Below are positions 45,898 through 64,000 of a stretch of 64,000 bases of DNA, in pieces; the first letter of the stretch is position 1; each line of letters opens with the position of its first letter. The notes under the pieces are model-generated. The model worked only from the letters and a program-made list of their open reading frames with translations, had not been told where the DNA came from and did no database searches. A program made the translations under genes and the position numbers. This DNA comes from an uncultured Rikenella sp. (GTDB lineage: Bacteria > Bacteroidota > Bacteroidia > Bacteroidales > VadinHA17), in contig CAYVYM010000001.1 in NCBI GenBank assembly GCA_964455705.1, positions 63,483-127,482 of the forward strand, written 5' to 3'.

Positions 45898-46222
45898 TGT
45901 TGAAGTTTTTGAAATATAGGCTACCGATTATAGTTTGTTTTCCAAAGTAATGTCGGGACATAAACCTCAAAATAATTTGAAATTTAATAAAACAACACCA
46001 CTTCAGAGTAAAAAAGAACAGGCTGTTCCTTTTAATTTTTCGTCAGAGATTTTAAAAATAAGTCATAAAATCCAAATCGGAGAAAAAAACTGTTTTTCCA
46101 TGAGAGGTTTCAGGTCAGGAGGATTAATTTTCGAACAAGTTTTTTATCTTTCCCTTCGGTATTGATGAGTGTAACTAAATTATCAGAAATCAGTGTAACT
46201 ATATTATTAACAGACCAGAAAA

Positions 46223-47929: not shown

Positions 47930-48411
47930 TCAGACTTACATACTAAAGATTATTCTGTCGGGTAAACCGGGCAAGCATCCGGAGTGGGTGTACTATGCCT
48001 GAAAATGCCCTTTCCGGCTATGCAATAGACTGGAGAGAATAAATTCATTCCACGGGACAGCGTAAATGAATTATGTTAAACTCTATGAAATCGGTTGCAT
48101 TATTAAATATATTTATTATATTTACCATGTTGTAGAATTTTTTCCAAGGGTAGTATTGCAGGATTTTGTTTGAAATGTGGAAGGGAACAGTGATGTGTTA
48201 AGGTCTCAAGGTTCCCATCTGCTGTGGTGAATGATGTTTTGTAAAGAACAGACTATATATTGTTACATCAGACAAAATTAGGACCATGCAAATCAATGAC
48301 AATTCCCCATGAAAAAGGAAGCCTGCTTCCTGACCGTTTACAGGATGAGACCCTGATTTGAGATCGGTCTCATTGAAAAAACAGAAAATTAAACCTTAAA
48401 ACCAAAATCTT

Positions 48412-51400: not shown

Positions 51401-51546
51401 ATAAAGAATCTGGTATGGATCCCGAAACTAACTCATATGGCAACGAAAATCAGGCAGTAGCAGGTTACCCGAGACGTCTGCTTGTTATCGGGACTAACAC
51501 GCCTTCAACACGCAACTACTTGATTGGCATAGATTTGACATTCTAA
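48412..51546 (+). CDS. susC: SusC/RagA family TonB-dependent transporter
   Basis: Plug motif INPTDIKSIDVLKDASATAIYGSRGANGVILITT; RSDASSRLAPG motif; C-terminal Phe. Confidence 0.96.
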   Translation: MIKNPPNPGILFKKYFGKLLLSLLFMAVLIIAQSGMAFASGTDSEELIIAQQRVITGLVAETDGSPMPGVAVQEKGTTNGTFTDAGGQYSITITTASPVLVFSFVGFQMQELPVGSSSSINVTLEVSDVGLDEIVVIGYGTVRKRDLTGSVASIRGEEMRDIPSANISQALQGRISGVDLTQTSTKPGATMQIRIRGSRSLNASNDPLIVVDGIPFPGSIGDINPTDIKSIDVLKDASATAIYGSRGANGVILITTNTGRAGQQAQVSFNSYVGIKTVFAPYPMMDGPEFVALRAARGQYSNGPDEFDNVNTDWQDLFFQTGKVTSHDLGVTGGTQKGNYRFGVGYYRDEAVVPGQSYDRFSMRGTLDQEVGKFIRFGFITNNSYSVNNGNNMGLYGVLSSSPISDPYNEDGSFKRTIKMSLDENWVYTRETIEALGDKWIDLTKGYNSYNTIYSEVKIPGIEGLSYRINVGLNFRMSNGGNYTGEGVFNYNPENLSTASISNSLTTNWAIENMLNYNRTFAGKHMVNLVALYSAEKSHYHSSQVSARDIPADAFQFYNIGRAAGEITVNPNNQNYNESGLISYMGRAIYSYDNRYMLTASIRSDASSRLAPGQKWHTYPALSVGWNISSESFMSNVELIDMLKLRVGYGQTSNQSINPYATLGLLNTRPYNFGSTYSIGYYVSQLPNQNLGWEYSDTWNVGLDFSLLKNRLSGTIEYYILNTKDILLSVNLPPTSGVSSYMANIGQTQNKGVEFSLNGVILENPNGWSWEAGINLYANRNKLVALASGQERDEGNSWFVGYPIDCIYDYEKIGLWQEGEEYLTAYEPGGNAGMIKVKYTGDFNEDGSPVRQIGPADRQIMSVEPDFMGGFNTRLSYKGLDLSAVGVFRSGGILISTLYSGGGYLNLMTGRRGNVKVDYWTPDNTDAKYPNPAGVLSGDNPKYASTLGYFDGSYLKLRQLSLGYNLSRNTWVQNAGIERLRLYLTVQNPFVMFSPYHKESGMDPETNSYGNENQAVAGYPRRLLVIGTNTPSTRNYLIGIDLTF

Positions 51547-51558
51547 AAAAAGACGAAA

Positions 51559-53508
51559 ATGAAAAGTGTATATATAAAAAGAGTTTTCGGAACAGTCTTG
51601 TTAGCGTTGTTCCTTGGAGCGTGCTCTGATATCCTGGAAGAACAGCCGCGCAGTATTTATGAACCTGGTTATTTCAAGACCGAGAAGGGCGTAATGGGAG
51701 GATTAACAGCCATGTACGCACACCTGCGCTGGATATACGGACAAGCCTACTACTATAATGCTACCCAGACCGGTACCGATGAAGCAACATATGCTCAAAG
51801 CGCCGATGGAAACTTCAAAGACCATGATCTTTCAGGCGTAGGATCGCTTACTTCCACAAGCAGCCGTTCTGATGTATTGTGGGGAACTGCATTCTCAAAT
51901 ATCAACACTGCCAGTGGAGTTATTGAAAATGCTGCTGCAGTTGGAACCATTTCGAATGCGTTGATTGCTGAAGCCAGATTTTTCAGAGCCTTCGACTACT
52001 TTCTGCTGGTACAGACATTCGGAGGGGTGCCGCTGGATCTTGGGTCGGGTGAACTGATGTTCAACACTACCCCTGTGAGAACCTCGGTGCGTAATACTGT
52101 GCCCGAAGTCTATACCAAGGCTGTTTTCCCTGATCTGCTGACAGCAATGAATGATCTGCCTGAAAACCCGCGTGTGACTGGCGCTGTAACCAAAACTGTC
52201 GCGCGGCTGTTCCTTGCCAAGGCTTACCTGACATACGGATGGTGGCTCGAAAACCCCAATAGTATCCCTACTTATCCTGAGGCAGCACGGAACGATCCTG
52301 ACGGACATGACGCCCAGTGGTACTTCCAACAGGCATATGATATAGCTGTTACTGCAATTGACAATCCCGGACCCTATGGACTGATGGATACTTACTATGA
52401 TGTGAACCTGGCACAGAACGACAGGAATAAGGAACAGCTGTTGTGGGCTGACCATACTGAGGAAAGTGAATATTATAACGGAGGCAGCCTTAGTTATGGT
52501 GGTGGCGGAGCTCCGGATAACTTTGCCGTATGGATGGTTACATGGAACTATACTGAAATCAGAAGCGCTGCCGCTCCGGACTGGGTTACGAAGATAAGCT
52601 CTGTTCAGCGTGAAGCAGAACAGCATCTTGGACGTCCGTGGACACGCATGGCTCCGCCTATTGGCGTATTTACAAATACCTTCGCCGACAAGACCAATGA
52701 TTCCCGCTACGACGGCACCTTTACAACCGTTTACCGTGCCAACTGGCCTAAGGGAGGCACTGCCAACACGGTAGCCTATAATGCCAACAATCTGGAAGTT
52801 TATCCGGGTGATGCAATCCTTACTTTCCTGGACGAGGAACCGGCTACACCTATTACTTATCCCACCGGAGCAGGTAATAGTAACATTGGTGCGGGGGAAT
52901 TACCAGGAAGGGCCGATTTCGTTATTTCTCCGAGCGGCATAAGCAGAATAGTCTATCCGGGGTTCTGGAAGATGGGTACCTACCGGACTGATAATGGAAC
53001 CGGTCTGGGCCAGCCCAATGCCGGCATAACACGTCCTTACTACGCTGCCAAATTCTCGGAGCTCTATCTCGTAGCAGCTGAAGCAGCAGTTAAAGGCGCT
53101 TCCACCCAGGCTGGCAAGAGTGCAAGGGATTTGATAAATGTCCTTCGTGCAAGGGCAGGGAAATGGCGTTGGGACAACAATGGTAATGTTGCAAAAGTTG
53201 CAGACTACAGTGATGAAATGATGACTGCCACACCTGCTACCATTACAATTGATTATGTTCTTGAAGAGCGTTCCCGCGAACTGTTCGGAGAAGGATACCG
53301 CTGGTTCGACCTTGTCCGTACCCAGAAATGGGGAGCCCTGGCTGGTACTTACGAGATATGCGGGCCCACTAAAGGGGACCATACCCCGGTAGTGTATAAC
53401 CGTACAATTGAGGCTAAACACTATCTGCGACCCATTCCGCAGGGACAGCTCGATGGTATGGAGTTGACCGATGCCGAAAAAGCAGCATATCAGAACCCCG
53501 GGTATTAG
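51559..53508 (+). CDS. susD: SusD/RagB family lipoprotein
   Basis: Lipobox LGAC; AEARFFRAFDY and EERSRELFGEGYRWFDLVRT motifs, ends QNPGY. Confidence 0.94.
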   Translation: MKSVYIKRVFGTVLLALFLGACSDILEEQPRSIYEPGYFKTEKGVMGGLTAMYAHLRWIYGQAYYYNATQTGTDEATYAQSADGNFKDHDLSGVGSLTSTSSRSDVLWGTAFSNINTASGVIENAAAVGTISNALIAEARFFRAFDYFLLVQTFGGVPLDLGSGELMFNTTPVRTSVRNTVPEVYTKAVFPDLLTAMNDLPENPRVTGAVTKTVARLFLAKAYLTYGWWLENPNSIPTYPEAARNDPDGHDAQWYFQQAYDIAVTAIDNPGPYGLMDTYYDVNLAQNDRNKEQLLWADHTEESEYYNGGSLSYGGGGAPDNFAVWMVTWNYTEIRSAAAPDWVTKISSVQREAEQHLGRPWTRMAPPIGVFTNTFADKTNDSRYDGTFTTVYRANWPKGGTANTVAYNANNLEVYPGDAILTFLDEEPATPITYPTGAGNSNIGAGELPGRADFVISPSGISRIVYPGFWKMGTYRTDNGTGLGQPNAGITRPYYAAKFSELYLVAAEAAVKGASTQAGKSARDLINVLRARAGKWRWDNNGNVAKVADYSDEMMTATPATITIDYVLEERSRELFGEGYRWFDLVRTQKWGALAGTYEICGPTKGDHTPVVYNRTIEAKHYLRPIPQGQLDGMELTDAEKAAYQNPGY

Positions 53509-53618
53509 TCTTCCTGATAAGGAAAGCAATTATTCCCGGGTGAAAAACCAACATCAACGAATGATCTGATTTGAATAGATAATATGGAGTCTGGGATTAG
53601 TTAAGGTTGGTTCAGGTT

Positions 53619-53652
53619 AAAGTGTCCGTGGATTTGTCCACGGACACTTTTT
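53619..53652 (+). terminator. Rho-independent terminator after susD
   Basis: Perfect 14-bp stem AAAGTGTCCGTGGA-TTTG-TCCACGGACACTTT followed by T-runs. Confidence 0.88.
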
Positions 53653-53802
53653 ACCTTTTTTTTCCAATACTTTTGCCGGATGCAAAGCTGTTTATGTGAA
53701 GATATTATTGGTACCTTGTTCCGGACAGGAAAAAACACCCGTCAATCTTCGTTGTCCACCTGGCGCCAAGTCAGGCATATTTTACTGTAATAATAATCTG
53801 GC

Positions 53803-54471
53803 ATGACTGAAATTCTTGAAAAACTGTCTACCTGTGTTGAGTTTGGCAAGATTGATATAAATTCACCCTACCCCCCCTCCATGAAGAATCAGGATGGCGC
53901 TTTTGAGCTTACACAGAATGCCCTTCTGGCAGGTATCAGCCCGGGGGAGATACTTGAAGAGGCTCTCATACCCGCGATGTCAAGGGTGGGGCAGAAGTTC
54001 ACCAGGAATGAGATTTTTGTTCCGCAGATGCTGATGGCCGCCAAGGCCATGAGCAGCTCAATGATCCATCTCAGGCCATATTACCTGTCAGGCCATACTA
54101 AACAAAAAGGCACATTCATCATCGGTACGGTGACGGGTGATCTCCATGATATTGGAAAGAATCTGGTCGCCATGATGATAGAAGGGGCAGGATGGGAGAT
54201 AATTGACCTCGGCGTGGATGTCAGCACTGACAAATTCATCCAGGCTGCCGAAGAACACCCTGGGGCTGTGATCGGGCTTTCAGCCCTCCTTACCACGACA
54301 ATGGAAAACATGCGAAAAACAGTCACTATCCTGAGGGAGAAGCACCCGTCCATAAAGATTCTTGTCGGCGGAGCACCGGTCACTGCCGAATTCTGTGAAA
54401 AGATCGGAGCCGATTATTATTCACCTGATCCCCAGGGTGCAGTGGAGTTTCTTAAAACAATCGCTCAATAG
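53803..54471 (+). CDS. Corrinoid (cobalamin-binding) protein, cap + B12-binding domains
   Basis: EIFVPQMLMAAKAM cap, GDLHDIGKNLV (DxHxxG), DLGVDV, GLSALLTTTM and VGGAPV motifs. Confidence 0.94.
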   Translation: MTEILEKLSTCVEFGKIDINSPYPPSMKNQDGAFELTQNALLAGISPGEILEEALIPAMSRVGQKFTRNEIFVPQMLMAAKAMSSSMIHLRPYYLSGHTKQKGTFIIGTVTGDLHDIGKNLVAMMIEGAGWEIIDLGVDVSTDKFIQAAEEHPGAVIGLSALLTTTMENMRKTVTILREKHPSIKILVGGAPVTAEFCEKIGADYYSPDPQGAVEFLKTIAQ

Positions 54472-54499
54472 ACAGCGCTGGTCTTTGTCAATACCAGTA

Positions 54500-54628
54500 T
54501 TGATTTAAGAACAAGGAATGTCGATTTTTGATTTATGAAGTTTTTGATTTGATTTGTGATGCACGTTTTGTGACCGATTATCTTAACTTCTTAAATCCTA
54601 AATCATTAATCGATATTCATAAATCAAT
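54500..54628. repeat. Long imperfect inverted repeat built from GATTT/AAATC short units
   Basis: Left arm ...GAATGTCGATTTTTGATTTATGAAGTT pairs with right arm AACTTCTTAAATC...AATCGATATTC. Confidence 0.65.
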
Positions 54629-54670
54629 TCCTGCCTTATAGTTTTTGACTATCTTCATGGACCAAACCAA

Positions 54671-55522
54671 ATGCACATGAAAACGGTTTTATCCGGTAGC
54701 TCGAAAGAAGTAATAATAGATACTGAAGGACCCGTCATCATCATCGGTGAGTCAATCAACCCGACGAGGCGAAAACGGCTCGTGTCAACTCTTCAGGAGA
54801 AGAACTTTAAGTACATGGTCTCTATTGCCAGAGCGCAGATTAACGCCATGGCGGATGTGCTGGATGTAAACGTTGGTTTTCCCGGAGTTGTGGATGAGGA
54901 ACTGTTACCTGCAGCAGTCATTGCGTTGCAGGAACATTTTGACATACCGCTCTGCCTCGATTCTCCTAATCCGGCCGCGATTGAGGCAGCACTTAAGGTG
55001 GCAAAAGGCAAGTGCCTCATCAATTCCGTAAACGGGGAAGAAAAATCGATGCAGAGGCTGCTGCCCATTGCTCAGGAATACGGCGCCGCAATAATCGGAC
55101 TGGTCCTTGATGACAACGGCATTACCCACGATCCTGAGAAGCGGCTCAGAATAGCCGAAAAGATAATTGAACGAGCGGTGCGAGCCGGTATAAAGGAGGA
55201 GGATGTGATAATCGATCCCCTGGCCATGGCTGTCAGTGCAGATCCCAGCGCATGCAAGGTAACGCTTGAAACCATACGACTGGTGCATGACAGGCTGGGC
55301 CATAACATTACGCAGGGGGCCAGCAATATTTCTTTCGGCCTGCCAAACCGCGAGAACATCAACGGTGCATATATGGTCATGTCAATCATGCTGGGCCTCT
55401 CATGCCCCATTGCCAATCCCGAGAAGATATCAGGACTGGTTCGTGCGGCAGACCTTGTCCTCGGAAGAGATGATTATGCAATCCGCTTCATTGAACATTA
55501 CCAAACCACCCTGCCGTCCTGA
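54671..55522 (+). CDS. Pterin-binding (DHPS-fold) methyltetrahydrofolate:corrinoid methyltransferase-like protein
   Basis: IIGESINPT, LDVN, LCLDS, INSVNGE, IIDPL and GASNISFGLP.R motifs, as in the MetH folate domain/AcsE. Confidence 0.88.
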   Translation: MHMKTVLSGSSKEVIIDTEGPVIIIGESINPTRRKRLVSTLQEKNFKYMVSIARAQINAMADVLDVNVGFPGVVDEELLPAAVIALQEHFDIPLCLDSPNPAAIEAALKVAKGKCLINSVNGEEKSMQRLLPIAQEYGAAIIGLVLDDNGITHDPEKRLRIAEKIIERAVRAGIKEEDVIIDPLAMAVSADPSACKVTLETIRLVHDRLGHNITQGASNISFGLPNRENINGAYMVMSIMLGLSCPIANPEKISGLVRAADLVLGRDDYAIRFIEHYQTTLPS

Positions 55523-56211
55523 ACAGGTTCACCTATACATTCAGCGAGCTGCTTCCGGACGTTGAGTCACTGGAACGTACAATGGGCTACGAGCCCGGTA
55601 TTGCGCCGGAACCCGTAACCATACTCACCAGAGAGGTGTCGGAAGAGCTCAGGCTCATGGGTGACATCAGGGCCGAATACAGGACTTTCAATAACATCAC
55701 ATTTTACCAAGAAGAGAAAAGCATCGGAGTCGATGGAGTTATTTTTGCTGTCAGGCCCATAGTTTACAGGCAGATAAAGGATGCTGACGAGATGGCTCTT
55801 TTCATTTGCACGGCCGGACCGGCAATAGGGGAGATGAGCCATAGAAGCATGAAGGAGGGAGACCTTCTGAAGGGGTACATCTATGATGTCATCGGTTCCG
55901 AGGTGGTTGAGAATGCTGCTGACAGGATGCAGGAAGAACTGAAAGATGAAGCTGCAGCACGCGGAAAAAAGATCACAAACCGCTACAGCCCGGGTTACTG
56001 CGGCTGGGACGTGGCTGAACAGCACAAGCTGTTCACCTTCTTCAGTAATAACTTCTGCGGCATCACGCTGACGGAATCAGCACTGATGAATCCGGTGAAA
56101 TCTGTAAGCGGAATCATCGGACTGGGCAGGGATGTGAAATACGCTCCATACCAGTGTCACATTTGTGGTGACAGGACCTGCATATACCGGAACAGGAAGT
56201 CGAAAGTCTGA
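55519..56211 (+). CDS. Stand-alone B12-dependent methionine synthase activation (AdoMet-binding)-like domain protein; start CTG 55519 or ATG 55582
   Basis: FICTAG, DVIGSEVVE, RYSPGYCGW and M.PVKSVSGIIG motifs; C-terminal CHICGDRTC. Confidence 0.86.
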   Translation: MNRFTYTFSELLPDVESLERTMGYEPGIAPEPVTILTREVSEELRLMGDIRAEYRTFNNITFYQEEKSIGVDGVIFAVRPIVYRQIKDADEMALFICTAGPAIGEMSHRSMKEGDLLKGYIYDVIGSEVVENAADRMQEELKDEAAARGKKITNRYSPGYCGWDVAEQHKLFTFFSNNFCGITLTESALMNPVKSVSGIIGLGRDVKYAPYQCHICGDRTCIYRNRKSKV

Positions 56212-56280
56212 GAAAGTTGCGATTTGCGATTTGCGAATTTTGACTAATCGAAAATCGAAAATCTGAAATCGAAAATTCCT
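56203..56280. repeat. Heptamer-repeat hairpin (GATTTGC)n/(AATCGAA)n between convergent genes
   Basis: TTGCGATTTGCGATTTGCGAATTT...AATCGAAAATCGAAAATCTGAAATCGAAAAT; a near-copy lies at about 58328-58396. Confidence 0.75.
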
Positions 56281-56287
56281 CTATTGC

Positions 56288-58234
56288 CTATTGCCTGTTG
56301 TCTGTCCTGAATGGTGCGGCAGGCAGGCCTTCGCGGTTAAAGAGATTGGCACCTTCCGGGTTATCAGCCCATGCGTATCTTACGGCAACAGGTTGCCTGA
56401 TCTTCCTGCCTTTAACAATCACCCTGTCACCCCTGATCCTCGCCTTCGCCCATACGAACTTCATATCCTCACCGGCAATAGCGAACTGCTGAAGCTTCCC
56501 GCCTCCCTTCACTACCAACCCGGAACCGGTATTATCAAAGCTGAGGATTATTTTCCGGCCTTTTGCTGTCATTGATTTGTATGTAGGACCGGAAAAGATC
56601 ACTTCATTATCACCGTAAGCCACCTTCCTGGCCACCTTGGCCAGTCTTATTCCGACATCCTTTTTATTCAGCGGGTGGATGTCATTCCATTCACCTATAT
56701 CAATCGCGACGGCCATTCCCGTCGCCGGTAACTTCAACGCCTCTGTCTGGGCTTCCCTGAACATTGCCCAGCCGCTTTCCGATGGTTCGTCCTTTGCTTC
56801 CATGAAGTTCGGCAGCTGCACCAGTATAAAGGGGAGGTCACCCTGGCCGAGGTTTTTCCGCCAGTCCTTAATCATTGCAGGGAGCAGGCTTCTGTATTCA
56901 TCCGGCCTTCCGGCGTTAGACTCTCCCTGGTACCAGAGTATGCCCCTGATGTGGTAATTAAGAAGCGGCGCCAGCATAGCATTATAAAGTCCGGCGGGCT
57001 TATAACCGAAGAACGTCTGTCCCCTCAGTGGCGGCATGACAGCACCTACTTTGTATTTCCATTCACCCTCAAGACTGGTTGTAAAGTCGCCTGCAGACAG
57101 ATTATAGGGTTTGTCAGTGACAAACCCACCGTCGCCGATGTTGCTTATCACCCTTACTGTAAGGATATTGCTACGCTCCTTCAGTATACCGGCCGGAATG
57201 GTGTACCTCCGCGGAGGGTACTGGTAAGACACGGTGCCTATGAAAATGCCGTTCAGAAAGGCCGAATCGGCATCAACGATCCTCCCCAGGTTGATGCTGC
57301 CGGGCTGTCCGGTAACCGAGGCAGGAACGATGATCTCCTTCCTGAACCATACTGTGCCGTTGATTCTCTTCAGCTCAGTTCCGGACCACAGGCCGGGGAT
57401 TGTAATTGTTTTCCAGTCATCGGTTGGCATTTCCGGATCGTGCCATTTCACCCCTGGTGTTTTATAGGCTTCGTCAGCCTTCATAAGCTGTCCGTACCAA
57501 TCGTGTATGCGCTTCTGGTCAGCGGCAGCTATGGCCGACATGAGCGAGTCCGACTTGCATTTCTGAAGCTCATCATAGTGGACCGGAAACTCCTTCAGAC
57601 TCTCCTCGCTTATCCATGCCTCGGCCGGTGATCCTCCGAAGGCCGAAGTCAGCAACCCGACAGGCACTCCATAAGTCTCATAAAGATGCACTGCAAAGAA
57701 CCATGCTGCAGCGGAGAAGTCGAGCACGGTTTCAGGATTTGCCGCGATCCAACTACCAGCCGAAAGATCATCAATGGGCTTTTTGAAGGAATAGACCTTG
57801 GGTACTATGAATGACCTGATGAATTTATTCTCCGCGGCTGCAATCTCCGCTTCGTAGAGTGGTCGCACCCTCCTTACAGGCAGCTCCATGTTCGACTGAC
57901 CCGAACATAACCATACATCACCGATCAGAATGTCAGAGAGGGTGATTGTATTGCCGGCCCTGATCTCCATGGTGTAGGGACCGCCGGCCTGCATGGGCGG
58001 AAGAGTGATCAACCATTCCCCTGATCCACCCGCCCGGGTCTCATAAATGCTTCCGGCAAACTCTGCGGTGACAGGCTCGCCCGGCGCGGCCCAGCCCCAA
58101 ATCTTCAGGTCCGTGTCACGTTGCAGCACCATGCCGTTACTGATCAGTCGTGGCAGCCTTACCTGGCCGTGCAGCGGATTCGTGATGAGCAGTGCAAGAA
58201 TAAGCGTGGGAAGGAGTAGGATTTTTGGTTTCAT
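56288..58234 (-). CDS. Sialate O-acetylesterase (SASA/SGNH) family carbohydrate acetylesterase with inserted beta-sandwich
   Basis: GDVWLCSGQSNM, GGSPAEAW, WYQGESN, DIHP, VRYAW and PFRTD motifs; signal peptide. Confidence 0.92.
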   Translation of the reverse strand: MKPKILLLPTLILALLITNPLHGQVRLPRLISNGMVLQRDTDLKIWGWAAPGEPVTAEFAGSIYETRAGGSGEWLITLPPMQAGGPYTMEIRAGNTITLSDILIGDVWLCSGQSNMELPVRRVRPLYEAEIAAAENKFIRSFIVPKVYSFKKPIDDLSAGSWIAANPETVLDFSAAAWFFAVHLYETYGVPVGLLTSAFGGSPAEAWISEESLKEFPVHYDELQKCKSDSLMSAIAAADQKRIHDWYGQLMKADEAYKTPGVKWHDPEMPTDDWKTITIPGLWSGTELKRINGTVWFRKEIIVPASVTGQPGSINLGRIVDADSAFLNGIFIGTVSYQYPPRRYTIPAGILKERSNILTVRVISNIGDGGFVTDKPYNLSAGDFTTSLEGEWKYKVGAVMPPLRGQTFFGYKPAGLYNAMLAPLLNYHIRGILWYQGESNAGRPDEYRSLLPAMIKDWRKNLGQGDLPFILVQLPNFMEAKDEPSESGWAMFREAQTEALKLPATGMAVAIDIGEWNDIHPLNKKDVGIRLAKVARKVAYGDNEVIFSGPTYKSMTAKGRKIILSFDNTGSGLVVKGGGKLQQFAIAGEDMKFVWAKARIRGDRVIVKGRKIRQPVAVRYAWADNPEGANLFNREGLPAAPFRTDNRQ

Positions 58235-58254
58235 CGGTGTCGTGTTTTTTGTCT

Positions 58255-58396
58255 AAAGGTCCAAAGGTCCAAAGGTCCAAAGGTCTGAAGGTCTGAAGTC
58301 TTAGAGTCAAAAGTCCATAAAGTCCGTAAAGTCTGAGGATTTGCGATTTGCGATTTGCGAATTTGGATTATATCGACAATCGAAAATCGAGAATTG
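58255..58396. repeat. Octamer tandem array (AAAGGTCC, degenerating) followed by a heptamer-repeat hairpin
   Basis: AAAGGTCC x3 plus about seven degenerate units (58255-58336), then GATTTGC x3 and AATCGA-type inverse units. Confidence 0.8.
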
Positions 58397-61369
58397 TCAA
58401 TTCTTATAGCTCTCCGGCGGGCCGAGGTATGACGGCCTGAGTCCGCCGGTGTTGATAATGATCTTTTCAAGGACAATGCCCGGGTCAATCATCCATATCT
58501 TCAGGGTGTGATTACCGGGTTCCCTGACGGAAATCTTCCCCTTCACAAAGCGGGTAGCGTCCATCACAGTCTTCTCCCACTCACGGTTACCGTTCTCCGC
58601 ATTGAACTCCTTCGGTACCACGGTTATTATCTGAGCCTCATCGTCATCAATTGAGAGCCCGATCTTAAAGTCGCGGTCAGGCAGGAAGTTGAGCGACGGT
58701 GCTACGTGCAATACCGTCTCGAACTCGCCGGTGGAGAAGAGATACATCTTGTATTCAAGCAATGGTGCATCTTTCCCCGGAACTGCAGGCGGGGCATCCG
58801 TCACAGCCGTGGCCCGCAGTCCCGAAAGAGTGCGACCATAATCTTCAACCCACTCCCAGTATCTCTCATCGGTATCAATGTTAGTCGTGTAGTTGGCAGC
58901 CTCGATGGCAATATATCCGTCGGCCTCGACAAACCCTTCAACAGTTGACGGCTGCGGTTCCGCAGGATTAAATGCGGTTACCCTGATATTAACCTCGCCG
59001 CCGGCGCCTTTTACAATTACTGTTCCTTCATGGTTTCCATATGTAATCATGGGCCAGTCGACCCGCAGCTCAATCCGCTGCTGGTGATTTACAGTGCCGG
59101 CAGTGTGGCTCATGGTGATCCACGGATTATCGGATTCCACCAAAAATTCAAAGGGCTCGTTACCCCTGTTGAAGATCTCAATATATCTTACCTGCCTGTT
59201 GTAAACATCAAAAGGGGGCAGCACCGGAAACCCGTCAGCACCTGGCCATGCCTTTACCGATCCCTCCACGGCAACTCCCAGTGAAGCAGCAACGGGCACC
59301 TCCGGCCGTTGAAGCTTTATCGCTCTCAGGGTGTTCTCCGGCGGATCGGCCCAGTTCAGGTAGCCCAGGTGAGCCTGGTCCATGAAGTGTTTCCACCGGC
59401 CTTCGGCATAGACCCTGTTGTAGTACCCCATCAGTGTGGTGTCTGCCCTGTAGAGTTCCTCTGTCCGGTCTGCCATCATAGCGGCTGCTGACCTGCCCTG
59501 TGATGCGTACAGGGCATTTTTCCCTGCTGCAACATACAGTTCATTGACCAGGGCACACGCCTTAACCGGGAAAAGGACCAGGTGGAAGTATGCATCCTGC
59601 ATTTCCTCCGGCAGCAGGGTTTTTATCGCTTCAGCTTTAAGAAGCAGTCTGATGTACTCACTTGTTATTCTGTCGGCTTCGTGATAATTGACGATGCTGT
59701 AGGTAGCCGGGCTGAGCAATTCAGGCTTACGCCGGCCGTTGAATTTTGTATAAGCGGAAATTATCTCCCCGATCTCTTCAGCATGCTCCGGGCCAAACTG
59801 GCTGGCTGCCCACCGAGCTGTCCATGCTGACATTTCATCACTGCCGTGGGCGTCAGTGTCATACGCCAGTGAAAGGAAATATTCCATCGGTACTTCATAT
59901 CCCCTGAAGTGTCCGACATTGACTATCCATATCCTGTCGGCGCCGTACTGCTTTGCCAGGGACATCTGATCCCATATTTTTGGAATAGGGCTCGTGTTGA
60001 TCCACTGGTAGCTGCGGGGCCCCCCGTGATAATCGAAGTGATAATAGACCCCTGCGCCGCCACTTCGCTTTCTTTCTTCGGCTGTGGGCAGGCGTCTGAC
60101 GTTGCCCCAGTTGTCCTCGGCCCACAACAGTGTCACATCGTCCGGCACTCGCATTCCGGCATGGTAGTAATCCTGCACCTCCTTGTAGAGGCACCACATC
60201 TGTGGCACTCTGGTCACGTCACGATTCAGTTCCTCAGCAATCATCCGCCGCTGTATGTCAACAATTTTCTCAAGTTTGGCAATATTTCCTGCCGGACCGC
60301 CTGGCCCCATCTCCGTGTCATCGGCACCGCGCAGCCCAATAGTAAGAATGCTCTCATAGTCCTTGTTCCTCCTGATGCCGTCACGCCAGAATTTCACAAG
60401 GGTGTCAGAATGGTCTGTCCAGCTCCAGCTTCCAAGGGTGCTCTTGTACCTGCGGTCCCACTCCTTCTGAGCCCTGATCATCGGCTCCTGGTGTGACGTG
60501 CCCATGACAATGCCATACTCATCAGCCAGGCTGGCGTTACGGAGGTCGTCTTCATTGAAGGCATTGTTCCACATGGCCGGCCATAGATAGTTGGCTTTCA
60601 GCCTTAACAGCACTTCGAAGATCCGCGAGTAGAACTCACTGCCATAGTTGGCCACGCCGGGGTGTATGGGAGGATCAGCTGATGGTGTGACATTGCCGTA
60701 TTTAAATGCCACCCATCTTGTCAGGGCCGGGTACTCATCATTGAGGAAGATGCCACGATATTTGACTGAAGGTTCATCCCAGACAAAGCGACCGGGATTA
60801 ATATACAGGTCATCGCTTTTACTGACCGGCACATCAGCCCACCAATGCCACGGTGAGACTCCGATCTGTTTTGATATTTCATAGATACCGTAAATTGTTC
60901 CCCGCTTGTCGCTCCCTGCTATAACCAGGGCCTTCTTTACTCCCGGGAGCGGATTTGTTACCGTCTGAATAAGGTAGCACTCCCATCTTCCGGCGATGTC
61001 ATCGACTCTGATCTTTCCCTTCCTGATAAGTTTATCAATGATCCGGCTCTTTCCTATTGTACCTGCAATGACGATCTCCTTCCCGCGTGCCGGTTTATCA
61101 AGGAGCATCGAAGGTGTTACCCCCGTCACGCTTCCGATATCCGACTGAAGATCTCTGAATGCCCTGATCACTCCCGGCCAGTCGTCGGAACTGATCAGCA
61201 ACGGGGCAGAATTGCCGGAAGCTGACAGGGTGAACATGCTTTCTTCCGGTTCCATGGCAACTACCCGGACGATGTCCGTCTTACCGGCAGCGCGGCCATT
61301 CAATGAGCCGGTGAGGCCAATTAAAAGCACCGGAATGATGACCCTGAGTAATCTTATTCTGTATTTCAT
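58397..61369 (-). CDS. GH115 alpha-(4-O-methyl)glucuronidase
   Basis: IAGSDKRGTIYG, GVSPWHWWAD, YRGIFLNDE, RLKANYLWPAMW, GTSHQEP, LYKEV, DNWG and YYHFDYHGGPRSY motifs. Confidence 0.93.
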   Translation of the reverse strand: MKYRIRLLRVIIPVLLIGLTGSLNGRAAGKTDIVRVVAMEPEESMFTLSASGNSAPLLISSDDWPGVIRAFRDLQSDIGSVTGVTPSMLLDKPARGKEIVIAGTIGKSRIIDKLIRKGKIRVDDIAGRWECYLIQTVTNPLPGVKKALVIAGSDKRGTIYGIYEISKQIGVSPWHWWADVPVSKSDDLYINPGRFVWDEPSVKYRGIFLNDEYPALTRWVAFKYGNVTPSADPPIHPGVANYGSEFYSRIFEVLLRLKANYLWPAMWNNAFNEDDLRNASLADEYGIVMGTSHQEPMIRAQKEWDRRYKSTLGSWSWTDHSDTLVKFWRDGIRRNKDYESILTIGLRGADDTEMGPGGPAGNIAKLEKIVDIQRRMIAEELNRDVTRVPQMWCLYKEVQDYYHAGMRVPDDVTLLWAEDNWGNVRRLPTAEERKRSGGAGVYYHFDYHGGPRSYQWINTSPIPKIWDQMSLAKQYGADRIWIVNVGHFRGYEVPMEYFLSLAYDTDAHGSDEMSAWTARWAASQFGPEHAEEIGEIISAYTKFNGRRKPELLSPATYSIVNYHEADRITSEYIRLLLKAEAIKTLLPEEMQDAYFHLVLFPVKACALVNELYVAAGKNALYASQGRSAAAMMADRTEELYRADTTLMGYYNRVYAEGRWKHFMDQAHLGYLNWADPPENTLRAIKLQRPEVPVAASLGVAVEGSVKAWPGADGFPVLPPFDVYNRQVRYIEIFNRGNEPFEFLVESDNPWITMSHTAGTVNHQQRIELRVDWPMITYGNHEGTVIVKGAGGEVNIRVTAFNPAEPQPSTVEGFVEADGYIAIEAANYTTNIDTDERYWEWVEDYGRTLSGLRATAVTDAPPAVPGKDAPLLEYKMYLFSTGEFETVLHVAPSLNFLPDRDFKIGLSIDDDEAQIITVVPKEFNAENGNREWEKTVMDATRFVKGKISVREPGNHTLKIWMIDPGIVLEKIIINTGGLRPSYLGPPESYKN

Positions 61370-61380
61370 TGTTCCGTGGA

Positions 61381-62763
61381 TTACTGGATTTCAATTACAA
61401 CTGTCGTAACAGACGATGGCTTCAGCATAATGGATTTATCCACCGTGATTGAACCGAGGTCCTTGTACATGCTTCCTTCCACAGTTTGCACTGCACTCAC
61501 GGTTTTTATGGTCTTATCCTTTACCATGAAATCGACATGGGTTGCTGTGGAAAGAGGGTTAACAATTACGATGGTGATTTCAGATCGGGAAGGATTTGCA
61601 AATGCAGAGAGATTTATTGAAGAGGTACTGCTGGTGGCATTTATCCTGTCATAACCCTTATCCACATTTTTGGCAAAGTGTTTCATCACATAATAAAAGG
61701 GAGTGACTGTATAACCGCCGGCACTGCTGATACCGATCATTGACTGCGGGTTGGCGGCATCCCATGCCATGAGCCAGTAGAGGTATCCGGAGGCGTTCGC
61801 TTCATTCAGGTTATTGATAATAAACTGTGCTGTCTTGAGCCATGAGAAGTTGGAATATTCTGTCATGATGCACGGTTTGTTGCCGTAACTGTCACGCACC
61901 ATGTTAAGCAGGGAGGTAGTTTCAGCAATCAGGGTGTTGGCAGACCAGTTGTAAGTATGATAGGCGTAGGCTGCGAGATAAGACTTGTCTTTGATAGGGT
62001 CGGAAAATGCCGCAAAAGTATTCCCGCCGAATTTGCTGACACCAAGATTTTCCGCTTCCGGACCGATCAGTTTGGGAGGATTCGGCCGCGTACTGATCTT
62101 TTCGTATACCAGATCAAAGGCATTTACATATCCGGGAAAGTCCACCGTCTCTGTTGGGCGCCATTCACAGGTCTCCCAGTCGGGGGTGATCCATGAAGGC
62201 TCATTCTGGATGCTTATATAGTCCGGAACGAACGGCATATGATCAAGCATATCAACCCAATAGTCAGCATGGGCTTCGTACATGTATGCCCCTTCCTCTT
62301 TTTTCAGTGTTCCCTGCCTGAGATTGTTGTTGCTCTTCAGGCCTGAGGGAGGTGTCCATGAACTGATGAGCGTCAGGATTTCAGGGTTGTACTGTTTTGC
62401 AATATCATACAACTGACCGGTAACGGTGAAGAGTGTTTTCAGTCCTGCATTCTCCATCACATCTGTCGTCTTCACTGCAGGATACCCCTGCGGGTAATAG
62501 TTGTTCTTGAACCTGACCATGTCCATACCCATATCCTCGAACAGCAGCTGGCAGATCTGGTTCTTGTTGGGGCTGGTCATGATTCTGTCGGAGTACCATG
62601 TCAGCGATCCGCCAAAGCCAATCATCTCCTGGTATGTAACCGAGGGATCAACGGTGATAGTGTATACTGTCGGCTCTTCACCATCATCAACGGGCTCTTT
62701 CCTGCATGAAGAAAAGAGCACTGCAAGGCAGAATATCAATACAAACAGAATGATATTTTTCAT
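61381..62763 (-). CDS. GH30 family glycoside hydrolase lipoprotein (xylanase-like)
   Basis: Lipobox FSSC; YQEMIGFGG, SWTPP, SIQNEP (acid/base) and IMTEY (nucleophile) motifs; C-terminal beta-domain. Confidence 0.85.
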   Translation of the reverse strand: MKNIILFVLIFCLAVLFSSCRKEPVDDGEEPTVYTITVDPSVTYQEMIGFGGSLTWYSDRIMTSPNKNQICQLLFEDMGMDMVRFKNNYYPQGYPAVKTTDVMENAGLKTLFTVTGQLYDIAKQYNPEILTLISSWTPPSGLKSNNNLRQGTLKKEEGAYMYEAHADYWVDMLDHMPFVPDYISIQNEPSWITPDWETCEWRPTETVDFPGYVNAFDLVYEKISTRPNPPKLIGPEAENLGVSKFGGNTFAAFSDPIKDKSYLAAYAYHTYNWSANTLIAETTSLLNMVRDSYGNKPCIMTEYSNFSWLKTAQFIINNLNEANASGYLYWLMAWDAANPQSMIGISSAGGYTVTPFYYVMKHFAKNVDKGYDRINATSSTSSINLSAFANPSRSEITIVIVNPLSTATHVDFMVKDKTIKTVSAVQTVEGSMYKDLGSITVDKSIMLKPSSVTTVVIEIQ

Positions 62764-62829
62764 TCCATAATGGTTAATCCTTATTTTTCAACACATCTTC
62801 CGGGGCCGACAATTATGGTGTTTCTCCTG

Positions 62830-62979
62830 TCATATAACTGTCAGTACCGTCTTCTGGAGATCCTCATCACGTAATGAGGGACCCGTCATGATCTCAAAAT
62901 CACCCGGCTCCACAACATATTTCATATCAATGTTATGAAATGCCAGCTCATTTTGTTCACCAAAGAGGTCAAGCGTCAT
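62830..62979 (-). pseudogene. Remnant encoding only the C-terminal tail of a GH3 (BglX-like) Fn3 domain
   Basis: Hand translation MTLDLFGEQNELAFHNIDMKYVVEPGDFEIMTGPSLRDEDLQKTVLTVI*; ...VVEPGDFEIM.G.S.RD is a typical GH3 C-terminus. Confidence 0.72.
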
Positions 62980-63439
62980 GTTATCTCCTCTATGGTTCTT
63001 TGCCTATCCTTCACGGCAAAGGTTTTCATTCTCACCTATGGCAAGATATAAGCCTTCCGATAATTTTTCTATATGCAGATTTACAATACGTTCCACAACA
63101 ATTTTACATTAATACAAAGATAGTGATTAATTGTCAGTGTTTCCCTTTTTAAATGAACCACAACAACACTACATCACTAACTCCATGCTTTAGCCCGGGG
63201 TAACTACGCCTGATATGATCATCCGGGCCATGAGGAAAGACTATTATTAAAAAGCTTTAAATTTAAGGCAAGGATGTTTTTAAAAAATGAAATTATTAAT
63301 TAAAATGATAGATTTGCTAAATCATTTTTCCATGAAGAAGTTTTTTCTATTGGACCAACTTCAATGGATAGAATTGGTTCCGCGGAATGGGGTCAGATTA
63401 ACATGTGTATCCAAATATTCAATTAATAATAAATAAAGT

Positions 63440-64000
63440 ATGAGCCTAACTTCTCAAAAAGTCACAGTGTTCGAAAAAATAGGGTATAGCCTGGGAGACT
63501 TTGCTGCGAACCTGGTTTTCCAAACATTGATTACTTACTTAGCTTATTTCTATACAGACATTTATGGGCTGAAAAACACCGATGCCTCAATAGTAATGTT
63601 AATTGTCGGCTTAGTTGCCGCATTTGGGTTTAATCCACTAATTGGATTGCTGGCTGACAGAACCAATTCGAGATGGGGCAAGTTCCGACCCTGGATATTA
63701 TTCACTGCTATTCCACTTGGCGTTATTGCTATACTTGCATTTTCAACGCCAGATTTTTCATATAAGGGTAAATTAATTTATGCTGCTGTAACGTATACTT
63801 TTTTGTTGTTGATGTATGCTTCCAGCAATCTTCCGTATGCTGCTTTGAGCGGTGTATTAACCGGTGATATGGGAGAAAGAAATAGTATCTCATCGTATCG
63901 TTTTGTTGCAGTAATGTTTGCACAGTTCTTTGTACAGGTATTTATGCTGCCGATTATTGAATATGCCGGCCACGGAGATAAAGCCGCCGGGATTGAATCG
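63440..64000 (+). CDS. MFS transporter, glycoside-pentoside-hexuronide (GPH) family; runs off the right edge
   Basis: Hand translation MSLTSQKVTVFEKIGYSLGDFAANLVFQTL...YFYTDIYGL...ADRTNSRWGKFRPWIL...NLPYAALSGVLT. Confidence 0.92.
   Translation, partial: MSLTSQKVTVFEKIGYSLGDFAANLVFQTLITYLAYFYTDIYGLKNTDASIVMLIVGLVAAFGFNPLIGLLADRTNSRWGKFRPWILFTAIPLGVIAILAFSTPDFSYKGKLIYAAVTYTFLLLMYASSNLPYAALSGVLTGDMGERNSISSYRFVAVMFAQFFVQVFMLPIIEYAGHGDKAAGIES

Follow-up and report, generated by a model that had tools for sequence, protein, structure and literature searches.

A xylan-degradation supercluster of an uncultured Rikenella sp. (genome G000) contains three consecutive genes for a corrinoid protein (CP), a methyl-tetrahydrofolate:corrinoid methyltransferase (MT2) and a MetH-type activation domain (AD), all of which lie in the 64,000-nucleotide stretch of DNA analysed here (the window). 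With a confidence slightly to the favourable side of even, we interpret them as the carrier, acceptor and repair components of a four-part corrinoid O-demethylase for a xylan-derived methyl group, most likely that of 4-O-methyl-glucuronate, which would feed tetrahydrofolate (THF). The candidate for the fourth component, the methyltransferase that would load the carrier (MT1), is a URO-D-superfamily protein (hereafter the UroD-like protein) encoded beyond the end of the window. The basis of this proposal is provided by domain identities, gene order, an intact metH elsewhere in the genome, statistics of co-occurrence and adjacency, and an interface predicted between CP and the UroD-like protein.

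The corrinoid module in the window

The trio (window 53803-56211) lies on the + strand between a SusC/SusD pair and converging esterase, GH115 and GH30-like genes (Table 1), and this order is kept in 4/4 close relatives. The first-pass annotation, which had recognized a corrinoid/pterin/AdoMet gene trio here, proved right as to the presence, positions and strand of all three genes, each of which has Pfam or NF matches. As for the flanks that it named, the SusCD pair, the esterase and GH115 were borne out, whereas the supposed GH30 gene falls below the Pfam cut-offs (a second sub-threshold score being 19.6 against 23) and can be described only as GH30-like. The hairpin after SusD suggests that the trio constitutes a transcription unit of its own, and no cobalamin riboswitch was found in window positions 45000-64000. 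The GPH symporter gene at the edge continues beyond the window (L009:27-989), and its product might import (methyl)glucuronate or aldouronates.

Table 1. Features of the trio and its surroundings, in window coordinates
Feature	Position	Strand	Basis and remarks
SusC/SusD pair	SusC 48412-51546, SusD 51559-53508	+	TIGR04056 801 bits; PF07980 and PF14322 match; immediately 5' of trio
Terminator-like hairpin, 14-bp stem then T run	53619-53650	+	Consensus scan only; between SusD and trio
CP, 222 aa	53803-54471	+	PF02607 cap 63.8 bits; PF02310 B12-binding 98.2 bits
MT2, 283 aa, pterin-binding TIM barrel, MeTr/AcsE-like	54671-55522	+	PF00809 78.6 bits; NF005719 262.2 bits
AD, stand-alone MetH-type AdoMet reactivation domain	55519-56211, putative start (listed ORF 55582-56211)	+	PF02965 48.2 bits
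Three short heptamer tandem repeats	56217-56300		Convergent intergenic region 3' of AD gene
SASA-type carbohydrate esterase with GH2-N-like sugar-binding domain	56288-58234	-	PF03629 74.1 bits
GH115 alpha-glucuronidase	58397-61369	-	PF15979 481 bits; PF17829 191 bits
GH30-like protein	61381-62763	-	PF14587 22.6 bits (cut-off 27); XynC model 39 bits (cut-off 650)
GPH (glycoside-pentoside-hexuronide) symporter, 5' part, runs off window	63440-64000	+	PF13347 123.6 bits; YagG-like NF007237 199.6 bits

CP combines a cap helix bundle with a B12-binding Rossmann domain, in which the DxHxxG motif takes the form GDLHDIG, and none of the residues D113, H115, G118, S160, L162, G189 and G190 varies among 33 orthologs. 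Its score against the glycine-betaine corrinoid protein model MtgC (NF047996) is 201 bits, under the cut-off of 370. A gap of 199 nt separates it from MT2, for which the cut-off of the matching model (NF005719, methyl-THF:corrinoid/iron-sulfur protein methyltransferase) is 259 bits; the MT2/AD junction is overlapping or short, and the three are separate ORFs. Unlike the activation module of MetH, AD aligns to the Pfam profile over the C-terminal half alone (positions 116-272 of PF02965, cut-off 25 bits) and ends in a CxxCxxxxC tail, conserved in 8/8 full-length homologs. Its NRYSPGY motif (RxxxGY-type), which we take to be AdoMet-binding, is invariant among homologs. The AD reading frame is open from 55495, the residues 5' of the ATG at 55582 align with the N-termini of homologs, and the true start almost certainly lies upstream of this ATG. 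The upstream open stretch contains no ATG, GTG or TTG, so translation may begin at the CTG at 55519, which overlaps the stop codon of MT2.

All three proteins are homologous to MetH modules (TIGR02082 matches of 123, 132 and 25 bits), in agreement with the earlier description of the trio as MetH minus its homocysteine domain: MetH is one polypeptide with four modules, whereas here there are three polypeptides and no homocysteine domain in the module. Given this composition, the trio could alternatively function as a methionine synthase of the split MetH type, or back one up, carrying methyl groups from CH3-THF via MT2 and CP to homocysteine, with the xylan context and the UroD-like gene being incidental or secondary. 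Relatives lend this reading some support, since a stand-alone homocysteine methyltransferase (PF02574) occurs within the module in 6/28 loci (L082, L085, L086, L093, L094 and L096) and in the same operon in L052, L053, L055 and others, with the L093 operon displaying the full set HcyMT-CP-AD-MT2-MTHFR. Further, the MtgB/MtgC/MtgD system of Ruegeria pomeroyi, according to the part of the report available to us, serves both demethylation and methionine synthesis with one stand-alone corrinoid protein and a THF methyltransferase that works in both directions (PMC12478193). However, G000 possesses an intact metH (1216 aa, contig C7), the product of which includes a complete activation domain (332 bits), as well as an adjoining metF, and no stand-alone homocysteine domain, its sole PF02574 match being inside this MetH. 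The combination of a missing metH and a lone homocysteine domain, which the first-pass annotation had set against its own proposal, is therefore not found in this genome, and the trio is not its methionine synthase. This counts against a simple split synthase in G000, although in the 6/28 loci mentioned above the module does also look like one. Several genomes with the split module likewise retain full-length MetH-sized frames, e.g. G254 (1332 aa), G118 (1221), G018 (1280), G078 (1239) and G028 (1225 aa). Given, in addition, the conserved xylan-locus position of the trio and the co-occurrence and predicted docking of the UroD-like protein (see below), which a split synthase leaves unexplained, we consider this reading very improbable.

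A URO-D-superfamily protein as candidate MT1

The absence of an MT1 from the window had been correctly stated; the candidate gene is found 10,970 bases past its end and 18.8 kb downstream of the trio, in the same xylan supercluster (G000:C1:138452-139483). It immediately follows GH67 in a cluster with the order LacI-GH67-UroD-XylB-XylA-MTHFR (gaps of -4, 31, 10, -8 and 7 nt), in which the MTHFR is a second copy in the genome besides metF. Thus, the UroD/MtaA-family MT1 that had been anticipated elsewhere in the genome is present at the level of the URO-D superfamily (PF01208, 111.1 bits; cut-off 23.9), but the protein fails the cut-off of the MtaA/CmuA model (TIGR01463, 55.4 bits against 235.4). 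It likewise fails that of the HemE model (TIGR01464, 52.2 bits against 302.95), and no haem genes are present in its cluster context. Its structure model (pLDDT 91.3) matches HemE and MtaA structures at TM 0.75-0.81 (for MtaA, Foldseek TM 0.77-0.81 at 16% identity), and a profile search of the PDB recovered MtaA (4AY7) at E = 0.0094 only; both in sequence and in fold it is equally near true decarboxylases and MtaA.

Within the family H240-N-D242 is invariant, and C320 is present in 26/29 sequences and replaced in 3/29. We take the zinc ligands of MtaA to be His-x-Cys ... Cys; relative to this presumed HxC motif, the UroD-like protein carries an Asp (H-N-D) in place of the second zinc cysteine. 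On our own reading of these motifs, rather than from a structural alignment, H240, D242 and C320 might stand in for the MtaA ligands. The family is widespread, with at least 7,587 sequence clusters annotated as 'uroporphyrinogen decarboxylase', and was found in Bacteroidales, Planctomycetota, Verrucomicrobiota and Kiritimatiellales, retaining 45-57% identity and 55 invariant positions across phyla.

It might be argued from the above affinities, in which true uroporphyrinogen decarboxylases figure among the top sequence and fold matches and the MtaA/CmuA cut-off is not reached, that the UroD-like protein is no corrinoid methyltransferase at all. Its reaction could instead be the decarboxylation or lyase-type cleavage of a metabolite derived from a uronate, or the methylation of an acceptor in the manner of MtaA, with the trio serving an unrelated donor. 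A planctomycete operon comprising a dehydrogenase, a URO-D paralog, an Nramp-like transporter and the UroD-like gene, without any corrinoid gene, would fit such a role, as would the lack of a B12 domain in all four long fused forms found. Nevertheless, we consider this distinctly unlikely in view of the contextual data. In a sample of 300 genomes of the order, a CP ortholog is present in 27/28 genomes with the UroD-like gene vs 20/272 without it, and GH67 or GH115 in 22/28 vs 39/272 (6/28 of the former have neither), although these contrasts overstate significance because related genomes are not independent. Corrinoid-module genes adjoin the UroD-like gene in 8/28 loci, and among planctomycetes 5/5 carrier genomes (carriers only being counted) encode a 210-aa CP with 45-47% identity. 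A dedicated MTHFR is encoded in the operon of G000 and, by BLAST label, of 10 close relatives (L102-L111). Furthermore, no other MT1 type was found in G000: MtaB is absent and the sole other URO-D paralog belongs to an unrelated cluster on contig C4.

Structure prediction of the CP:UroD-like complex also argues against a role apart from the corrinoid protein, giving a median ipSAE of 0.80, as against 0.00 for the best of three controls; in a benchmark that applies only roughly to custom alignments, 58/80 solved complexes and 2/110 mismatched pairs reach the mark. At least 94% of the contacts are shared between runs, and the pLDDT of the partner is at least 91. The predicted interface involves residues 69-81, 115-117, 120, 192 and 194 of CP, including His115, and on the other side the vicinity of the invariant D206/D207 and R288/D289. 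In the prediction, the UroD-like protein contacts CP on its B12 face. We regard the UroD-like protein as a strong candidate for an MT1 that would load methyl groups onto CP.

Gene neighborhoods and the nature of the methyl donor

Relatives with UroD-like proteins of 79-89% identity keep the LacI-GH67-UroD-XylB-XylA-MTHFR order in 11/11 cases, and those at 66-68% identity show a GH115...LacI-UroD arrangement in 3/3. In the phylogenetic tree the G000 protein belongs to a clade of 16 (SH-aLRT of 85; 99 for the inner 14), of which 16/16 are encoded beside GH67 or GH115 and also beside a LacI-type regulator, which is of the sugar-sensing type. The link to alpha-glucuronidases has at least 4 origins on the tree. 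Genes of uronate catabolism (UxaC, UxuA or UxaE) recur beside the UroD-like gene in L082, L090, L092, L170 and L177. Such surroundings suggest that the donor is a sugar, not a phenyl methyl ether. The link to glycan loci posited in the first-pass annotation holds for the conserved place of the trio in the close relatives and for the UroD-like protein, but fails for CP outside this lineage, where, judged by BLAST labels, 20/20 loci show neither GH67 nor GH115 at a distance of up to 10 kb; the link therefore runs via the UroD-like gene and not via the trio.

Across the family as a whole, GH67 or GH115 is found within ~10 kb in 18/97 UroD-like loci and is not nearby in 79/97, many of which are sulfatase, DUF6807 and GFO_IDH clusters. 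Additional contexts include oxidoreductase/sulfatase clusters, GcvP, GH2/GH97, GH127 and the planctomycete transporter operon. Because of this low fraction and variety of contexts, the substrate of the family may be broader or different. The same machinery could accordingly act on another donor even in G000, such as aryl methyl ethers (e.g. ferulate from arabinoxylan), uronate methyl esters or other O-methyl sugars (2-O-methyl-xylose or -fucose, or algal methyl-galactose). Aryl methyl ethers are, as far as the available parts of the sources go, the only established substrates of corrinoid O-demethylases (PMC3727330, PMC9930637). In L092 and L116 the surroundings of the UroD-like gene encode BD-FAE-type esterases, and in L082 a pectinesterase and a GDSL esterase adjoin it. 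Yet, none of the annotated loci showed genes for aromatic-acid catabolism or its regulation next to the UroD-like gene, and the sequence conservation across phyla suggests one conserved substrate class. Taken with the uniform alpha-glucuronidase and LacI association of its own clade and the recurrent uronate catabolic genes, this leads us to regard a different donor in G000 as unlikely, and 4-O-methyl-glucuronate as the most likely substrate.

Elsewhere in Bacteroidales the module is found in varied combinations. MT2 orthologs (68-74% identity) occur in CP-MT2-MTHFR operons, with FTHFS next in the two loci checked by Pfam (CP-MT2-MTHFR-FTHFS in L190 and L201), while G310 shows the order CP-MTHFR-AD-XylB-XylA. 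These gene orders, with the FTHFS and UxaC genes of G000, would fit a flow of methyl groups towards THF. Some operons combine CP orthologs with other URO-D paralogs or with MtaB, the latter adjoining them in the Bacteroidales loci L094 and L051/L196. The frequent presence of a homocysteine methyltransferase or MtaB in the module of relatives tells against a narrow reading, and makes CP look like a methyl hub shared across Bacteroidales, with UroD-like, MtaB, HcyMT and MT2 proteins arranged around one CP family; the homocysteine methyltransferases of the above-mentioned 6/28 loci point to methionine synthesis as a methyl outlet. In a broader and more tentative generalization, to which we would accord somewhat less than an even chance, the 'uroporphyrinogen decarboxylases' of the UroD-like family would be the methyl-donor enzymes of a new O2-independent type of sugar O-demethylation. 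They would pass methyl groups from 4-O-methyl-glucuronate or, in other clades, from other methylated glycan sugars to the shared CP hub, and thence to THF (with a dedicated MTHFR and FTHFS yielding formate and a gain of ATP) or to homocysteine, yielding methionine. On this generalization, they would be the first corrinoid methyltransferases to cleave an aliphatic sugar ether, and non-acetogenic fermenters would retain the methyl groups of hemicellulose instead of leaving methanol to methylotrophic methanogens.

Proposed pathway, known systems and biological implications

In the proposed pathway, periplasmic GH67 and GH115 would free 4-O-methyl-glucuronate from glucuronoxylan fragments for import, possibly via the GPH symporter. 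In the cytoplasm the UroD-like protein, as MT1, would transfer the O-methyl group to Co(I) of CP, and its His240/Asp242/Cys320 site may bind a metal activating the ether oxygen. MT2 would then move the methyl group from CH3-Co(III) to THF, and AD, using AdoMet and a reductant, would re-methylate cobalt that had been accidentally oxidised to Co(II). The resulting CH3-THF could be consumed by MetH, or be oxidised by the second MTHFR of the operon and proceed to formate via FTHFS, and the demethylated glucuronate would enter the UxaC pathway; both FTHFS and UxaC are encoded in G000. To our knowledge, the corrinoid O-demethylases so far described use aryl methyl ethers as substrates, and the leaving group of an aliphatic sugar ether is much poorer than an aryl one. 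In the MtaB-MtaC-MtaA methanol system, an aliphatic C-O bond is cleaved by Co(I) with the assistance of a Lewis-acid metal.

The UroD-like protein shares the URO-D fold with MtaA of that system (structures 4AY7 and 4AY8); however, MtaA removes methyl groups from the corrinoid whereas the UroD-like protein is proposed to load them, and MtaB has no counterpart in G000. The O-demethylases of acetogens and Desulfitobacterium, in the available part of the description, comprise MT I, a corrinoid protein, MT II and an activating enzyme, with the methyl group ending on THF (PMC3727330). This four-part logic is common to the proposed system, with its MT1, cap and B12-domain CP, pterin-binding MT2 and repair protein. 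The differences are a presumed donor that is an aliphatic sugar methyl ether and not a phenyl one, a candidate MT1 from an unnamed URO-D clade, and genes divided over two operons of a xylan supercluster. Moreover, the host is a fermentative, polysaccharide-degrading, non-acetogenic member of Bacteroidales. In the place of the activator the module has the MetH-type AdoMet domain, and no RACo-type ATP-dependent activator (PF14574) was found in G000, which is 98.4% complete. The Ruegeria MtgB/MtgC/MtgD system resembles the Bacteroidales methyl hub, but, as far as the available part of its report goes, its donor enzyme is a glycine-betaine methyltransferase without the URO-D fold, and it belongs to aerobic marine bacteria and to no glycan locus. 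P450-mediated demethylation of 6-O-methyl-galactose is oxidative and O2-dependent and releases formaldehyde. In marine bacteria this cytochrome P450, encoded with glycan-degrading genes, strips the sugar O-methyl group and lets polysaccharide catabolism continue, according to the available part of the source (PMC6292453). By comparison, the system proposed here would be O2-free and would conserve the methyl group on THF.

Hardwood xylans and those of many dicots carry 4-O-methyl-glucuronate as their chief methylated sugar. As we understand the standard pathway, its methyl ether stops normal glucuronate catabolism at the aldolase step. Full-text literature searches turned up no description of its anaerobic handling or of the proposed system, and the only sugar O-demethylase recovered by them is O2-requiring. 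The place of the trio in a xylan cluster and of its candidate partner next to GH67 suggests an undescribed oxygen-free demethylation of plant sugars. If correct, the proposal would offer an O2-free biocatalyst for the cleavage of aliphatic ethers. It would also give a function to a very common unnamed URO-D clade, correcting its annotation as uroporphyrinogen decarboxylase. Full use of glucuronoxylan would then be B12-dependent in some Bacteroidales, with plant methyl groups entering folate C1 metabolism and ending in methionine or formate, not methanol, a diversion that would matter for the carbon and methane balance of guts, peat, sediments and digesters.

The corrinoid module and its surroundings

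The first-pass annotation had placed in a glucuronoxylan locus three genes coding for a corrinoid protein (CP), a pterin-binding methyltransferase (MT2) and a MetH-type activation domain (AD). ORF listing and family scans confirmed this trio as three co-directional genes. The neighboring GH115 and esterase genes it had reported were likewise recovered, but the supposed GH30 is only GH30-like, scoring under the Pfam cut-offs. Within positions 45000-64000 of the window no cobalamin riboswitch or other RNA family was detected, the sole match being a chance CsrC-like hit of 16 bits on the terminator hairpin.

Features of the trio, its flanks and the URO-D-superfamily genes (window positions unless a contig of the genome, G000, is named)
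Feature	Position	Remarks
SusC and SusD	48412-53508	upstream of the trio
Terminator-like hairpin	53619-53650	strong; after SusD, before the trio
CP	53803-54471	PF02607 and PF02310; GDLHDIG, the B12-binding motif
MT2	54671-55522	NF005719 (methyl-THF:corrinoid/iron-sulfur protein methyltransferase model), 262.2 bits, cut-off 259
AD	55582-56211 as listed	PF02965, 48.2 bits, profile positions 116-272 only
SASA-type esterase, GH115 (481 bits), GH30-like gene		converging on the trio from downstream
GPH symporter	starts 63440	
UroD-like gene	G000:C1:138452-139483	18.8 kb after the AD gene; cluster order: LacI regulator, GH67 alpha-glucuronidase (501 bits), UroD-like, xylulokinase, xylose isomerase, second MTHFR
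Second URO-D gene	G000:C4:35046-36014 (L010:7035-8063)	PF01208, 171 bits; MtaA/CmuA model, 102 bits, under cut-off

A scan of the reading frames found that of AD open from 55495, and the residues preceding ATG 55582 match homolog N-termini in an alignment, forming a conserved extension and indicating that the true start lies upstream of 55582. There is no in-frame ATG, GTG or TTG within this extension (55495-55582), and CTG 55519, which shares bases with the TGA that ends the MT2 gene, is a candidate non-canonical start; a sequencing error or translational coupling could also explain an extension devoid of the usual start codons. At its other end AD has a conserved CxxCxxxxC tail, to which a metal or an Fe-S cluster may be bound. 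The 199 nt separating CP from MT2 are filled with GATTT-rich low-complexity sequence (54500-54570), and behind the AD gene the convergent intergenic stretch contains 7-nt tandem repeat runs (TTGCGAT, AATCGAA, CTATTGC) at 56217-56300. Upstream of the xylan genes, positions 3699-25311 are occupied by a sugar-acid and pentose cluster with RpiB, a split transketolase, an SBF-family transporter, an RraA-like aldolase, two DUF362 proteins, a TAL-like protein, a DHDPS-family aldolase, a 2-hydroxyacid dehydrogenase and a PfkB kinase, followed by a SusCD pair, an enolase-superfamily dehydratase, cupin proteins and an SGL lactonase.

The trio might alternatively be viewed as a simple split methionine synthase, which the first-pass annotation had tied to a genome lacking metH and possessing a lone homocysteine domain. 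In G000, which is 98.4% complete, the single match to the homocysteine methyltransferase domain (HcyMT, PF02574) is part of a 1216-aa MetH encoded on contig C7. This MetH has a complete activation domain of its own (332 bits) and is directly followed by metF (323 aa); the same genome search recovered no stand-alone homocysteine domain. The split-synthase reading thus fails for G000, and the trio is not the cell's methionine synthase.

A candidate methyltransferase I of the URO-D superfamily

The window contains no methyltransferase I (MT1), as first reported, but a genome search with PF01208 recovered two URO-D-superfamily genes, one of which, here termed UroD-like, lies 10,970 bases past the end of the window and is a candidate for this role. 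The intergenic gaps of its cluster are -4 to 31 nt from LacI to MTHFR, and the second MTHFR is a 475-aa protein fused to DUF5981. Genes for the GPH symporter, GH10, GH3, GH116 and a PfkB kinase occupy the interval between the trio and this cluster, which makes the entire stretch a single xylan supercluster. Neither MtaB nor a RACo-type activator was found in a search of G000. The second URO-D gene, on contig C4, is accompanied by genes for two beta-lactamase/DUF3471 proteins, an amidohydrolase, a ROK kinase, an MFS transporter, a SIS-domain protein and a patatin, and may code for another corrinoid-linked enzyme with an amino-sugar or muropeptide-like substrate.

Judged by its sequence, the UroD-like protein belongs to no close named family: it scores 55.4 bits on the NCBIfam MtaA/CmuA model (cut-off 235.4) and 52.2 bits on that of HemE (cut-off 303). 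Profile searches of the PDB recovered HemE at ~1e-10 and MtaA at 0.009, while a single-sequence search gave weak HemE matches and chance matches to antibodies. Its structure model (pLDDT 91.3) superposes on HemE and MtaA alike (TM 0.75-0.81, 16-19% identity), and Foldseek did not separate decarboxylase from methyltransferase. The residues invariant in 29 aligned members include C77, E79, R148, D206, D207, H240 and D242, along with S319 and G322-P325 of an SxGGGMPP loop, whose position 320 is Cys in 26 of the 29. The resulting H-N-D ... C pattern presumably resembles the HxC ... C zinc motif of MtaA, Asp standing where that motif has Cys, a likeness drawn between motifs rather than from a structural alignment. 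Publicly annotated as 'uroporphyrinogen decarboxylase (family protein)', the family comprises at least 7,587 clusters at E <= 1e-20 among 8,000 candidates scored. Fusion to a B12 domain was seen in none of four long matches, an absence that is weak evidence, and singleton fusions occur with GH67, SDR and Amidohydro_2 domains. A 767-aa protein with a single member, P0128, combines GH67 and URO-D in one reading frame, which could reflect a genuine fusion or an artefactual frameshift spanning adjacent genes.

Complex prediction with each partner supplied as an alignment, and with three controls, gave a median ipSAE of 0.80 for CP and the UroD-like protein versus 0.00 for the best control; 58 of 80 solved complexes attain this mark, as do 2 of 110 mismatched pairs, counts that are only rough for user-made alignments. 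The runs share at least 94% of contacts, with a partner pLDDT of at least 91. The predicted interface comprises residues 69-81, 115-117 (including His115), 120, 192 and 194 of CP and residues 160-169, 211-216, 246 and 288-289 of the UroD-like protein, so that the B12 face of CP would meet the barrel face bearing the invariant residues. The prediction supports binding of CP to the UroD-like protein.

Genomic associations of the two families

Among 300 other genomes evenly drawn from the same order, UroD-like orthologs (45-57% identity) are present in 28, the complete genomes G178, G254 and G276 among them, and CP orthologs (at least 56% identity) in 47. The latter occur in 27 of the 28 genomes with a UroD-like gene versus 20 of the 272 others, the sole exception, G297, being 79% complete. 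GH67 or GH115 is similarly encoded by 22 of the 28 versus 39 of the 272, neither being detected in the remaining 6; since related genomes are not independent, these contrasts are descriptive and not tests. In flanks of roughly 10 kb taken either side of the UroD-like gene in these 28 genomes, corrinoid-module genes adjoin the UroD-like gene, mostly divergently, in 8 loci (L073, L081, L082, L085, L086, L093, L094 and L096), a count based on blastp labels from G000 proteins, which overlook distant family members, and on Pfam labels for selected loci, with many neighbors unlabelled.

The CP orthologs have varied partners. They occur in operons with other, distant URO-D paralogs (L053, L063, L066, L069), with MtaB (L051), and in CP-MT2-MTHFR and CP-HcyMT-AD arrangements, and a stand-alone HcyMT lies between the UroD-like gene and CP in 6 of the 28 loci, together with MtaB in L094. 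From this variety of HcyMT, MtaB and URO-D partners, the CP family looks like a hub that takes in methyl groups from several donor enzymes and passes them to THF or homocysteine. A published analogue is the MtgC/MtgD pair of Ruegeria, which is reported to serve both glycine-betaine demethylation and methionine synthesis (PMC12478193).

Several of these loci have further peculiarities. Operons of LacI or AraC, CP, MT2, MTHFR and then formate-THF ligase in L190 and L201 (G208, G247), and likewise by ORF size in L193 and L195, resemble a branch of fermentative Bacteroidales metabolism that oxidizes methyl groups. A CobW/G3E-family GTPase of the metal-chaperone type is placed between a URO-D paralog and AD in two corrinoid operons (L199:7451-8344, L203:7362-8273), which hints that those URO-D methyltransferases need an inserted metal. 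MtaB adjoins CP orthologs in L094:12106-13476 (G270; 515 bits, in the order HcyMT-CP-MtaB-AD beside a GH115/GH10 xylan locus) and in L051/L196 (G191), which suggests use of methanol-derived methyl outside methanogens and acetogens.

A scan with one genome per species recovered at least 581 UroD-like relatives, of which the best 80 were used, with Pfam run on 76 unlabelled ORFs from 12 of their loci; they derive from Bacteroidales metagenome-assembled genomes, Planctomycetota, Verrucomicrobiota, Kiritimatiellales and others. Among these, the LacI-GH67-UroD order is kept in 11 of 11 relatives of 79-89% identity and XylB-XylA-MTHFR in 10 of them, the contig of L115 ending inside UroD, while GH115 ... 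LacI-UroD is present in 3 of 3 relatives of 66-68% identity. In a tree of 98 members (11 of 108 loci, lacking a called UroD-like ORF of full length, >300 aa, were omitted), G000 falls in a clade of 16 that all lie beside GH67 or GH115 (SH-aLRT 85; 99 for the inner 14). The alpha-glucuronidase label requires at least four changes on this tree, implying that the link arose more than once. UxaC, UxuA or UxaE flank the UroD-like gene in five further loci. According to the title of PMC8056927, a GH67 enzyme cannot dispense with the 4-O-methyl group in discriminating between substrates.

The wider distribution argues against reading the family as narrowly dedicated to glucuronoxylan. An alpha-glucuronidase gene is found within about 10 kb in only 18 of 97 UroD-like loci, and other contexts recur: clusters of DUF6807, GFO_IDH, ThuA and sulfatase, LacI with GH2 and GH97, GH127, and GcvP, the last including both sampled genomes of the family to which G000 belongs. 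A link between the trio and alpha-glucuronidase loci did not extend across the order, as none of 20 CP loci outside the G000 lineage has GH67 or GH115 nearby by BLAST label, and the trio per se is rejected as a glycan-locus marker. Close relatives keep its position between SusCD and esterase-GH115-GH30 in 4 of 4 cases, and CP-MTHFR-AD-XylB-XylA is the arrangement in a more distant one. In the close relative L217 (G307:C14:258000-277900) SusC, SusD and the CP gene are broken into many short frames, either because the long-read assembly is of low quality or because the locus is decaying.

A conserved planctomycete operon (L120, L135, L144, L146, L179) combines genes for an HIBADH-like dehydrogenase, for a second URO-D paralog called at ~322-427 aa and for an Nramp-like transporter (~586 aa) with the UroD-like gene; the opposite strand codes for a conserved unknown protein of ~215 aa and a xylose-isomerase-like TIM-barrel protein. 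No corrinoid gene lies beside this operon; a 210-aa CP was present in 5 of 5 planctomycete genomes searched, a count that has no negative control.

A proposed route for xylan-derived methyl groups

In the proposed mechanism, 4-O-methyl-glucuronate freed by GH67 and GH115 would be imported, whereupon the UroD-like protein, as MT1, would move its methyl group to Co(I) of CP, from which MT2 would pass it to THF, with Co(II) on CP being repaired by AD using AdoMet. The methyl group could then be oxidized via the operon's extra MTHFR and the FTHFS encoded elsewhere in G000, or alternatively be used by MetH, and the demethylated glucuronate would enter UxaC; genes for both FTHFS and UxaC were recovered by the genome search. 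This direction of methyl flow is inferred from the catabolic context, the LacI-type regulator and the MTHFR-FTHFS operons of relatives.

It is quite probable that CP, MT2, AD and the UroD-like protein jointly form a corrinoid methyl-transfer system. We rate this higher than the full statement, that they form a corrinoid O-demethylase delivering xylan-derived methyl, most likely from 4-O-methyl-glucuronate, to THF, for which the odds appear only slightly better than even. The demethylation originally suggested is partly supported and much strengthened by the MT1 candidate, but its substrate and activity are only presumed. To our knowledge, the corrinoid O-demethylases described so far all act on phenyl methyl ethers, and where an aliphatic C-O bond is concerned the closest precedent is methanol cleavage by MtaB. 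Full-text searches of papers outside subscription journals, main text only, recovered no description of a corrinoid-dependent sugar O-demethylase; the sole sugar O-demethylase encountered was the P450 for 6-O-methyl-galactose of PMC6292453, an O2-dependent enzyme. The system is classed as a corrinoid methyltransferase system with a new MT1 clade, a new presumed substrate class and a MetH-type repair domain, whose chemistry, the corrinoid O-demethylation of a sugar ether, would be new.
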